NCBI GenBank assembly: GCA_052389695.1
Contig: JBQTHQ010000021.1
Coordinates: 24,295-88,294, forward strand
Source of the DNA: Bacteroidota bacterium
GTDB lineage: Bacteria > Bacteroidota > Bacteroidia > 2-12-FULL-35-15
Direction of reading: 5' to 3'
Length of the DNA: 64,000 nt
How positions within the stretch are numbered: the stretch's first letter is position 1; the number at the start of each line of letters is the position of its first letter. The notes below the pieces were generated by a model that saw only the letters and a program-made list of their open reading frames with translations, was not told the origin of the DNA and did no database searches. A program made the position numbers and the translations under genes. Of the stretch, positions 28,864 to 29,125 are shown one piece after another.

Positions 28864-29125
28864 TGCAATGCCCAATATCAGGTGGTGATGCGGTATATCA
28901 ATGCCGTATATATTAATGACCATTACAAATGATGTAATAGAGTTTATAGATAATTGTGAAGAAGCGCCGGATCGTTCTATGCAGACGAAAGTAAATGAAA
29001 TAGCTTCTGAAGATAAATTATTTAATTTATATCCGAACCCTAATAACGGAAAGATGGTATTGAAGTACAATTTAGCTGCAAGGGAAAAAGGTGCTATAGC
29101 TATTTACGATATTAAACAAATAGAA
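28864..29125 (+). pseudogene. frameshifted remnant of a T9SS type A CTD-coding 3' end; duplicate of nt 26872-27103 of the giant gene
   Basis: About 240 nt at roughly 90% identity to the giant gene's 3' end, decaying to about 70% at the 5' edge. Encodes ...MTITNDVIEFIDNCEEAPDRSMQTKVNE.ASEDKLFNLYPNPNNG.MVLKY..AA.EKG.IAIYDI. A 1-nt indel and an in-frame stop sit at its 5' edge. The copy ends about 10 nt before the ATG at 29126. Confidence 0.55.

Follow-up and report, generated by a model that had tools for sequence, protein, structure and literature searches.

In the 64-kb stretch of DNA analysed here (the window, along which all positions are counted), the segment 28853-29114 is a dead gene fragment, which is ordinary when taken alone and encodes no product that could fold or be exported. 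It is a partial copy of the 3' end of a giant T9SS cargo gene and lies in the spacer before another T9SS cargo gene, with which most of it happens to be in frame. We think it probable that this relic is a decayed orphan tail, namely a copy of the C-terminal tail of the giant's family which is truncated at the 5' end, frameshifted and truncated again at the 3' end. The features discussed below are collected in Table 1.

Table 1. Features of the window around the relic, with positions, strand and the basis of each assignment
Feature	Position (nt)	Strand	Basis or remark
Giant T9SS cargo gene, 2443 aa, MGQ0827184.1	19921..27252	+	ORF list, Pfam
Conserved 250-aa tail of the giant family	26500..27252	+	Cluster search, AF2 model
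Copy A of the repeat, within the giant gene	26841..27103	+	Tail residues 115-202
Hairpin between giant gene and NLV gene	27266..27306	+	dG -24.9 kcal/mol, z -5.4
NLV partner gene, 482 aa	27315..28763	+	Pfam, NCBIfam, homologues in related loci
GC-rich palindromic element GGAGTTCCTCCCCTTTGGGGAGGTTAGGAGGGG	28600..28633	+	In frame inside the CHU_C coding region
Mini-ORF, 39 codons, frame 1	28813..28932	+	Signal-peptide-like MIKILFHGLLFLSVILLCNAQ
Relic 5' part, diverged, frame 0	28853..28907	+	Net 1-nt loss at its 3' end
Relic core, frame 2	28908..29114	+	End of helical module, linker, first 29 CTD codons
Spurious 75-codon extension of the annotated 776-aa protein	28901..29125	+	No homologue has the extension
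Downstream T9SS cargo gene, 701 aa	29126..31231	+	N-termini of 11 homologues; Pfam/NCBIfam

A direct repeat of the giant gene's 3' end

The repeat finder returned a sole long direct repeat between 19 and 33 kb. It is ungapped and 207 nt long, pairs 26897-27103 in copy A with 28908-29114, and has a start-to-start spacing of 2011. The two copies are identical at 192 of 207 positions (93%), and the 15 mismatches are scattered along the repeat, with the longest perfect runs being 44, 31 and 27 nt. The window contains the central 44-mer exactly two times, and none of 100 shuffles contained it. On the 5' side, a gapped alignment extends the similarity to 26841-26896 and 28853-28907, where it is about 70-73% and includes indels. 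The score of this extension (to 26841/28853) was reached by one of 1,000 shuffles, which is significant, and the homology sought further upstream of 28853 was not significant (94 of 1,000 shuffles). A weak tblastn HSP was linked back to 28794, upstream of the relic start.

The offset between the copies drops from 2012 to 2011 between 28901 and 28908, which means a net loss of 1 nt in the downstream copy, and this loss (28902-28908) shifts the copy from frame 0 to frame 2. The copy terminates at 29114, which is 11 nt 5' of the ATG at 29126, and its total length in the spacer is about 262 bp. These measurements bear out most of what the first-pass annotation had reported, namely a repeat of the giant gene's 3' end at 28864-29114 at a distance of 2011 nt (with identity of about 90% in the core, measured here as 93%, and of about 70% at the 5' edge), a frame-breaking 1-nt indel at the 5' edge, which is seen in the change of offset, and an end about 10 nt before the ATG. 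Its remark that recombination between the copies would delete the intervening DNA also holds, the loss being 2011 nt.

What the relic encodes

The giant protein contains PKD domains, an M43-like peptidase domain and a type A CTD (Pfam). The CTD scored 41.5 bits when the C-terminal 750 aa were searched and 39.5 bits with the full protein, and it falls within the definition of this domain. In the AF2 model (pLDDT 78), residues 14-139 of the conserved tail fold into a helical domain, residues 151-167 form a disordered, hypervariable linker, and residues 171-248 make up the 7-strand type A CTD. The tail family is defined by the helical-module motifs QCP..GG.AVYQAR and VIEF.DNC, the linker, and a CTD ending in DKIVIIK. 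When the tail was searched among 1.84 billion cluster representatives, it turned out that 110 protein clusters matched at E<1e-30, always at the extreme C-terminus, and that most of the host proteins are 1100-3000 aa long. The closest relative of the window giant is the giant of a locus in the survey described below (L008; 56% over 852 aa). In the fold search of the tail, solved relatives were found by the CTD alone (mirolase CTD 8qb1, PorU and RemA-CTD), and the helical domain had no match.

The relic corresponds to tail residues 115-202 of the giant, a stretch that in the AF2 model starts with the last two helices, runs through the linker and ends after three of the seven CTD strands. Tail residues 1-114 and 203-250 are missing from it, and it is thus partial at both ends. 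Its membership of the tail family is seen in this alignment and in the retained motifs NIALQCPISGGDAVYQ and VIEFIDNCEE. The 5' part reads NIALQCPISGGDAVYQCRIY followed by two stops, and its counterpart in the giant is NISLQCPLEAGDGVYQARNLLM. Since Pfam PF18962 starts at giant residue 2366 (nt 27016), the CTD-coding portion is limited to 27016-27103 (29027-29114 in the copy; 88 nt, 29 codons), and about two thirds of the copy represents the pre-CTD helical module and the linker. Of the earlier description as a CTD-coding 240-bp duplicate, the duplication therefore stands, whereas the size has to be corrected to about 262 bp and the CTD label applies only to the portion just given.

With three of seven strands, placed on the N-terminal side of an ORF, the relic falls outside the definition of a type A sorting domain (TIGR04183/PF18962), and the 75-aa peptide derived from it gave no TIGR04183 match and did not reach the type A CTD model. 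No in-frame signal peptide was found for it, and the mini-ORF at 28813 that resembles a signal peptide is read in another frame. Because the relic is incomplete at both ends, frameshifted and without an in-frame signal peptide, it yields no folded or exported product. Homology, frameshift, truncation and a fused ORF without support from homologues together identify it as a pseudogene or gene relic. The frameshift and the truncations support the original reading of the element as a remnant, frameshifted and without function, of the giant gene family's 3' end.

Mosaic divergence between relic and giant

The two parts of the relic differ from the giant to very different degrees. Over the 16 ungapped codons of the 5' part, where the relic has NIALQCPISGGDAVYQ and the giant has NISLQCPLEAGDGVYQ, 15 of 48 positions differ (31%), against 15 of 204 (7.4%) in the core (Fisher p = 3.8e-5). 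For third codon positions, the differences amount to 8 of 16 in the 5' part and 11 of 68 in the core (p = 0.007). The 5' part matches the local giant at 33 of 48 nt and the tails of other MAGs at 29-39 of 48, and it retains the family-consensus residues NIA, GG and AVY, which the giant lacks. The core, in contrast, is nearly identical to the giant even across the family's hypervariable linker, and the junction between the two parts coincides with the 1-nt frameshift. A 5' part at the background similarity of the family next to a near-identical core argues for past gene conversion or recombination between paralogous tails. Judged from these sequences, the mosaic points to a 5' part of old, paralogous origin, to which a recently shared 3' part is joined.

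The 15 substitutions in the core comprise 9 synonymous and 6 non-synonymous ones, giving dS of 0.27 and dN/dS of 0.14. This ratio departs from neutrality in both lineages (p = 6.5e-4), while the departure from neutrality in the relic lineage alone is marginal (p = 0.027). If the frameshift had arisen together with the conversion, the relic would have been neutral and dN/dS would be expected to be at least 0.5, which the observed 0.14 fits poorly (p ~0.03); this leaves a different timing or an alteration of the giant's copy by later recombination.

These figures also bear on a simpler history, in which the 2011-bp segment 26841-28852 was recently duplicated in tandem, the second copy was mostly deleted and the remainder has been decaying neutrally. 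The A-B-A' layout and the spacing of 2011 agree with such a duplication, and so does the fact that the tail, the hairpin and the NLV gene form a unit in other genomes, where NLV genes are also found in tandem arrays of up to five. However, the divergence is uneven (31% versus 7%, p = 4e-5) with the 5' part at background family similarity, the differences are mostly synonymous, and the second unit lacks everything beyond the counterpart of 27103, which is not the pattern of a recent segmental duplication. Neither a second type B (NLV) gene nor a second hairpin has left a trace, and at least one further deletion must therefore be assumed; the uneven divergence would in addition require that a third paralogue later converted the matching 5' part of the giant. 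We consider this history unlikely. The footprint of a segmental duplication proposed in the first-pass annotation survives insofar as a unit of tail, hairpin and NLV gene does exist elsewhere, but a fresh 2-kb duplication disagrees with the uneven divergence and the synonymous bias.

Hairpin, NLV gene and small elements

The hairpin that had been noticed after the giant gene proved to be a strong one (Table 1). Its 3' flank, TATCTTTG, fits the Bacteroidota -7 promoter motif TAnnTTTG, and the next ATG follows 8 nt on. The position of the hairpin is conserved after the giant and after orphan tails in related loci (L006, L008, L012, L019 and L061), where the stems vary in sequence yet remain complementary and are again followed by TATCTTTG and an ATG.

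The family of the partner gene is called NLV after its N-terminal motif QVNLVPNPSFE. The NLV protein of the window has a signal peptide, an N-domain (QVNLVPNYSFE...GGERFITIGNF...YYYIDDV) and a type B (CHU_C) sorting domain, which scored 71 bits with Pfam CHU_C and 33.9 bits with TIGR04131, under the 35-bit cutoff of the latter. The family is itself exported, to judge from its signal peptide and its T9SS sorting domain. In L002, L004, L006 and L007, a giant or orphan tail is followed by an NLV homologue. A 33-mer of the palindromic element inside this gene recurs with one mismatch at L012:10092, which is the junction just before the orphan tail of that locus, and weaker copies exist in L028 and L070.

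The ATG of the mini-ORF opens 50 nt past the NLV stop, and MIKILFHGLLFLSVILLCNAQ is a textbook signal peptide ending in AQ. Signal-peptide-like starts are present at the corresponding position in L008, L012 and L061, and L006 has a truncated second NLV gene there. The peptide is no more similar to any given signal peptide than to unrelated ones in the window, and T-rich DNA readily gives signal-peptide-like peptides. The mini-ORF may derive from the 5' end of the gene that once owned the tail fragment, and the pair would agree with a second cargo gene of which a signal peptide and a tail are all that is left. Readthrough of the NLV stop into the relic, for which frame 0 is open after the TAG at 28761-28763, was rejected, because NLV genes before orphans end in complete sorting domains and their frames relative to the orphan vary. 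An Rfam search of 26000-30000 returned no RNA family.

Orphan tails in related loci

To place the relic in its family, we scanned genomes with the tail alignment and obtained 79 loci (given L numbers here) from dozens of uncultured Bacteroidia MAGs, which were surveyed by tblastn. Single MAGs often yield several paralogous giant loci, so donors for conversion are available. An NLV gene lies within 400 nt after the giant in 42 of 48 giants. We defined an orphan tail as a stop-to-stop ORF of less than 250 aa that contains part of the pre-CTD module, and found 16 of them, with the CTD being complete in 15. An NLV gene follows within 400 nt in 13 of 14 cases and lies just before the orphan in 10 of 16. 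The 5' truncation points of the orphan tails span tail residues 16 to 136; they have open frames, no signal peptide and no conserved start codons.

The order of giant, NLV gene, truncated tail, hairpin and NLV gene occurs in at least seven loci (L008, L012, L019, L047 (twice), L051, L059 and L061), and in six loci the orphan is preceded by a type B NLV gene very like that of the window (L008, L012, L019, L028, L060 and L061). The window, with its giant, hairpin, type B NLV gene and tail fragment, presents this recurrent architecture minus the distal half. The relic begins 90 nt past the NLV stop, a placement shared with the orphan cassettes of L008, L012, L019, L059 and L061. As a cassette it is incomplete, having the frameshift at 28902-28908, the cut at 29114 and neither a hairpin nor a second NLV gene. 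The suggestion that the tail, the hairpin and the next gene form a unit agrees with their behaviour in these other genomes. The pairing of giant gene and NLV gene with the hairpin between them is strongly conserved, and the cassette architecture has apparently not been described before.

The intact orphan tails appear from their substitution ratios to be under purifying selection. For example, the tandem orphans o1 and o2 of L047 have a common truncation point, with dS of 1.19 and dN/dS of 0.17, and the orphans of L004 and L068, which come from different MAGs and have different flanks, share a common 5' end, with dS of 1.77 and dN/dS of 0.08. They are thus probably not entirely junk. Mosaic identity between giant and orphan is also found in L008, L019 and L059, and likewise between the tandem orphans of L047. 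In L008, a 45-codon pre-CTD block is 89-96% identical at the nucleotide level between giant and orphan, whereas the linker and CTD are only 47-56% identical. Tandem NLV arrays of up to five genes occur in L015, L022, L036, L040 and L047. L022 and L029, whose 'tig' names suggest long-read assembly, both have no orphan tail after the NLV gene.

An orthologous locus or a second strain of the organism was found neither among the 79 tail loci nor in three further searches: exact-protein look-ups with four window genes and one NCBI protein (no contig and no second genome copy), a contig scan of genomes with the 701-aa protein (no match) and a search of metagenomes for a degenerate form of NDVIEFIDNCEEA (no match).

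The survey helps to judge whether the copy is an assembly artefact, in which a variant 3' end of the giant gene, from another strain or a paralogue, was chimerically joined into the spacer. The source is a MAG contig, and there is a precedent in the KLIKK protease loci, whose near-identical C-terminal regions confounded the original assembly and which were re-sequenced (PMC4404884). However, the copy differs from the giant at 15 scattered sites with no perfect run above 44 nt, an artefact would require two separate chimeric joins within 300 nt, and the placement right after the NLV gene matches the layout seen in many independent assemblies. We therefore regard an artefact as very improbable.

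The annotated start of the downstream gene

The 701-aa protein of gene 29126..31231 has a signal peptide (MRSLLVFTLILISFDQFGQG), a conserved catalytic-like domain, an Fn3 domain and a type A CTD, which scores 53 bits and lies within the definition of the sorting domain. The relic core is in frame with this gene, giving an ORF of 776 aa at 28901..31231. Its translation is identical to NCBI MGQ0827186.1, which is titled [quoted passage not shown]; MGQ0827184-86 are encoded on one 90.6-kb MAG contig. We compared the protein with 11 homologues (45-82% identity), all of which start with a short signal peptide aligned to MRSLLVFTLILISFDQFGQG, and none of the 11 has the 75-residue extension. Since the homologues all begin at the signal peptide, the extension is spurious. 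The 776-aa form had already been suspected to be an ORF-calling artefact; the homologues confirm this, and the artefact is present in the deposited MGQ0827186.1.

The opposite reading is that translation really starts at 28901 and the 776-aa protein is genuine. There are indeed 75 open codons in frame with the downstream gene, and NCBI annotates the same form, but being in frame is a 1-in-3 chance. Besides the homologues, which all begin at the signal peptide, it speaks against this reading that the signal peptide would be buried 75 residues deep in the protein and that the extension would consist of an incomplete helical module and three of the seven strands of a C-terminal sorting domain. 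Such an extension is hardly credible.

The neighbourhoods of the closest homologues (81-82% identity) are unrelated to that of the window, and a homologue of the 29126 protein was found near none of the 79 tail loci. A PDB sequence search with this protein gave no match.

Comparison with known systems

Orphan modules of Rhs/CDI systems consist of a homology block, a divergent C-terminus and a partner gene, and have no initiation or export signals (PMC3967940); in Salmonella, an rhs-CT orphan has a 522-bp block in common with the main gene at 95% (PMC3967940). The window resembles them in having a large main gene, a partner gene and then a start-less, promoterless fragment, which shares a block of 207 bp at 93% and has no in-frame signal peptide. 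In both cases, if the main gene recombined with the block, the partner gene would be lost and an in-frame fusion would result. The relatives resemble them further, as their orphan tails have a complete alternative C-terminus and their own downstream partner gene. In contrast to Rhs/CDI, the variable C-terminus consists here of a linker and a T9SS sorting domain and not of a toxin, the NLV partner is a secreted protein with an NLVPNPSFE start and not an immunity protein, and the window copy breaks off inside the CTD, has a frameshift and precedes an unrelated gene. No toxin and immunity pair was recognised by Pfam, NCBIfam and the fold search, which gave only the matchless helical domain and the CTD.

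This likeness raises the possibility that the fragment is a silent donor which exchanges with the giant's tail by gene conversion, as a damaged member of an active set of orphan cassettes. Several observations agree with such a role: the mosaic identity indicates past exchange with the giant; orphans without signal peptides or conserved starts keep open frames with dN/dS of 0.17 and 0.08; the L004 and L068 orphans combine a common 5' end with different flanks, and in L008 the linker and CTD diverge after a block of homology; the orphans each have their own NLV gene downstream; and all this matches the published description of Rhs orphans (PMC3967940). However, the window copy is frameshifted and lacks four of the seven CTD strands and a partner gene, so a crossover would give a nonsensical giant::29126 fusion. 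Moreover, no toxin- or immunity-like function is evident, the NLV proteins are themselves secreted cargo, no recombinant has come to light, and the low dN/dS of the orphans could also be produced by repeated overwriting from functional paralogues. An active role of the fragment thus seems quite improbable to us.

Other T9SS cargo genes offer partial parallels. In Tannerella forsythia, several T9SS cargos, the KLIKK proteases, have a near-identical C-terminal extension made of a variable region and a type A CTD, and the authors suggest that pre-existing genes were fused to common SP, NTE and CTE coding sequences (PMC4404884). The CTD model of the giant matches the solved mirolase CTD (8qb1), but the KLIKK genes are complete and expressed, and neither truncated orphans nor partner-gene cassettes are described for them. 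The gingipain/HagA genes of Porphyromonas gingivalis undergo domain rearrangement and allelic exchange (PMC5266723). They are similar in that recombination or conversion between paralogous T9SS cargo genes leads to mosaic C-terminal regions, and different in that the exchange takes place between full-length functional genes and between strains, with no dead intergenic fragment. From ordinary gene relics which cause wrong start annotations, being truncated and frameshifted spacer fragments in frame with the next gene, the window element shows no essential difference. An ordinary gene relic with a consequence for annotation is accordingly its most economical description.

Proposed origin and implications

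The data show directly that the giant's 3' end is repeated, that the copy is frameshifted and truncated, that its divergence is mosaic with a bias to synonymous changes, that the architecture recurs elsewhere and that the ORF is mis-annotated. From these observations we infer an order and a mechanism of events for this single MAG contig. For a decayed orphan tail, the history may have begun with a second tail, a paralogue, lying downstream of the NLV gene of the giant. Conversion or recombination would then have made both tails near-identical from about 26897/28908 onward, after which they would have diverged by about 7%, mostly at synonymous sites. Finally, a 1-nt loss at the mosaic junction would have broken the frame, and a deletion would have taken the distal CTD, the hairpin and whatever followed, ending 11 nt before the 29126 ATG. 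The ancestral state and the deleted material are reconstructed by analogy with loci that are only 44-56% identical. On this analogy, the source cassette most likely comprised the giant, a hairpin, an NLV gene, a truncated tail with a complete CTD, a hairpin and an NLV gene.

A crossover in the 207-bp repeat would remove the NLV gene and join the giant to gene 29126 in one reading frame, with a predicted product of about 3100 aa. The giant's frame would continue into gene 29126 because 2011 mod 3 = 1. With a broken CTD and a former signal peptide in the middle of the protein, this fusion is unlikely to be useful.

In conclusion, the fragment records recombination between paralogous C-terminal regions of T9SS cargo genes, and the repeats bound a 2-kb segment that recombination could remove. 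For annotation, MGQ0827186.1 should begin at 29126 and have 701 aa, and signal-peptide or localisation predictions made on the deposited form will be wrong. A wider idea, which we offer tentatively and hold to be doubtful as yet, is that giant T9SS genes of an uncultured Bacteroidia lineage carry arrays of silent orphan-tail cassettes that exchange with the expressed giant by homologous recombination or gene conversion, the window fragment being a recently inactivated member that still shows the scar of such an exchange. Each proposed cassette would contain a 5'-truncated pre-CTD module, an alternative linker and CTD, no start or signal peptide, and its own hairpin and NLV gene. If this were true, the cassettes would be the T9SS equivalent of the orphan modules of Rhs/CDI or of pilS cassettes. 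If cassette exchange is proven, T9SS cargo would have its first described system of this kind, which would also offer a handle on the variation of sorting domains and pre-CTD regions among paralogues.

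Sorting domains of the NLV family

The NLV gene (27315..28763, plus strand), which lies 3' of the giant T9SS cargo gene (19921..27252) in the window, belongs to a partner family with a constant N-terminal domain (QVNLVPNPSFE motif). The C-terminus comes in two forms, a type A CTD and a type B domain (CHU_C). Most of the NLV relatives carry the type A CTD, as compared in four database relatives (P0127, P0129, P0134 and P0135) and three loci from uncultured Bacteroidia MAGs (L004:10467-11465, L006:11048-12025 and L007:7868-8830). The type B form is found in the window and in L008, L012, L019, L028, L060 and L061, with extra Ig-like repeats ahead of CHU_C. 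Since one N-terminal domain is paired with either CTD type, the type of T9SS sorting domain has been swapped within a single family. The CTD of the giant itself shares 52-63% identity with the type A CTDs of the four database relatives.

In many giant proteins of the family, an internal domain shows homology to the N-terminal domain of NLV proteins (25-37% identity), and from this likeness in sequence the partner gene appears to be a domain of the giant copied as a gene of its own. The window's own giant had no match to the NLV N-terminal domain at E<1e-4.

Boundaries of the NLV gene

A terminator-like hairpin (27266..27306 in the window) separates the NLV gene from the tail of the giant, or from an orphan tail, which is a truncated giant-tail ORF beside an NLV gene. 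The stems vary in sequence between loci and complementarity is kept. The 3' flank of the hairpin, TATCTTTG, fits the Bacteroidota -7 promoter motif TAnnTTTG and only some 8 nt separate this flank from the NLV ATG, so terminator and promoter may overlap; read this way, the hairpin may be a terminator overlapping the predicted promoter of a nearly leaderless NLV transcript. In L007, the called NLV start overlaps the terminator hairpin (L007:7868-7950). The left hairpin arm of this locus, AAACCGCAGCACAAAATTTTG, has an exact second copy that begins 27 nt past the end of the arm and encodes the signal-peptide cleavage region (TAAQNF), and the annotated signal peptide is probably in part hairpin sequence.

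At the other end of the window's NLV gene, its frame (frame 0) has no further stop for 50 codons beyond the TAG (28761-28916) and leads directly into the 5' part of the relic, a decayed copy of the giant family's tail at 28853-29114, likewise in frame 0. This sharing of the frame is probably a coincidence. At other loci, the NLV genes 5' of orphans have complete terminal sorting domains and their frame relative to the orphan varies.

Features located in the window and in related loci
Feature	Position	Remarks
GC-rich palindromic element, GGAGTTCCTCCCCTTYGGGGAGGTTAGGAGGGG, core CCTCCCCTTTGGGGAGG	window 28600-28633	inside NLV gene
Related copy of the element	window 35757-35809	inside PorP/SprF gene 34903..35841
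Copies of the element elsewhere	L012:10092-10124; L028:1271; L070:3446 (minus strand)	
Hairpin flank with promoter-like motif	window 27299-27317	equivalent sites in L006, L008, L012
Giants with internal NLV-like domain	L006:5817-6473; L008:1041-1814; L013:2474-3124	also about ten other loci
1024-aa protein gene	window 36492-39566 (minus strand)	C-terminal C1q domain (36 bits), weak collagen-repeat match
Run of very GC-rich tracts (plus-strand repeats of CCGCCACC type)	window 12059-12903	in gene 11454..13502 (minus strand)

Other genes in the window

The very GC-rich tracts contrast with the 38% GC of the remaining window and probably encode Gly-rich repeats of a T9SS cargo protein. A 258-aa ORF (12031..12807) open on the opposite strand is probably spurious. 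The C1q-domain gene clusters with the PorP/SprF gene and a CHU_C cargo gene (39594..42179); C1q-like domains are uncommon in bacteria.

Orphan tail cassette and GC-rich palindromic element

An orphan tail together with the first 200 nt of its NLV gene is shared by L004:9966-10675 and L068:1034-1703, from two MAGs, at 74% nucleotide identity. The shared stretch has the identical 5' end point in both and unrelated flanks on both sides, and the NLV gene of L068 is cut after 83 codons. It seems that this cassette moved, or that its surroundings got replaced.

The GC-rich palindromic element lies in-frame within genes that are AT-rich. The copy in the window's NLV gene falls within a loop of the CHU_C domain, where WSSSPLGRLGGA replaces GELKNVNDS of L008, and the related copy in the PorP/SprF gene is read as PLLWRGAGGEV in the signal-peptide region. 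A 33-mer of the window element recurs with 1 mismatch in L012, another MAG, exactly at the junction 5' of the orphan tail. Database relatives (P0121, P0129) contain peptides, among them PLGEVGGA and GEGWGV, that resemble the translated element. The element may be a small repeat, mobile or recombinogenic, that tolerates in-frame insertion.
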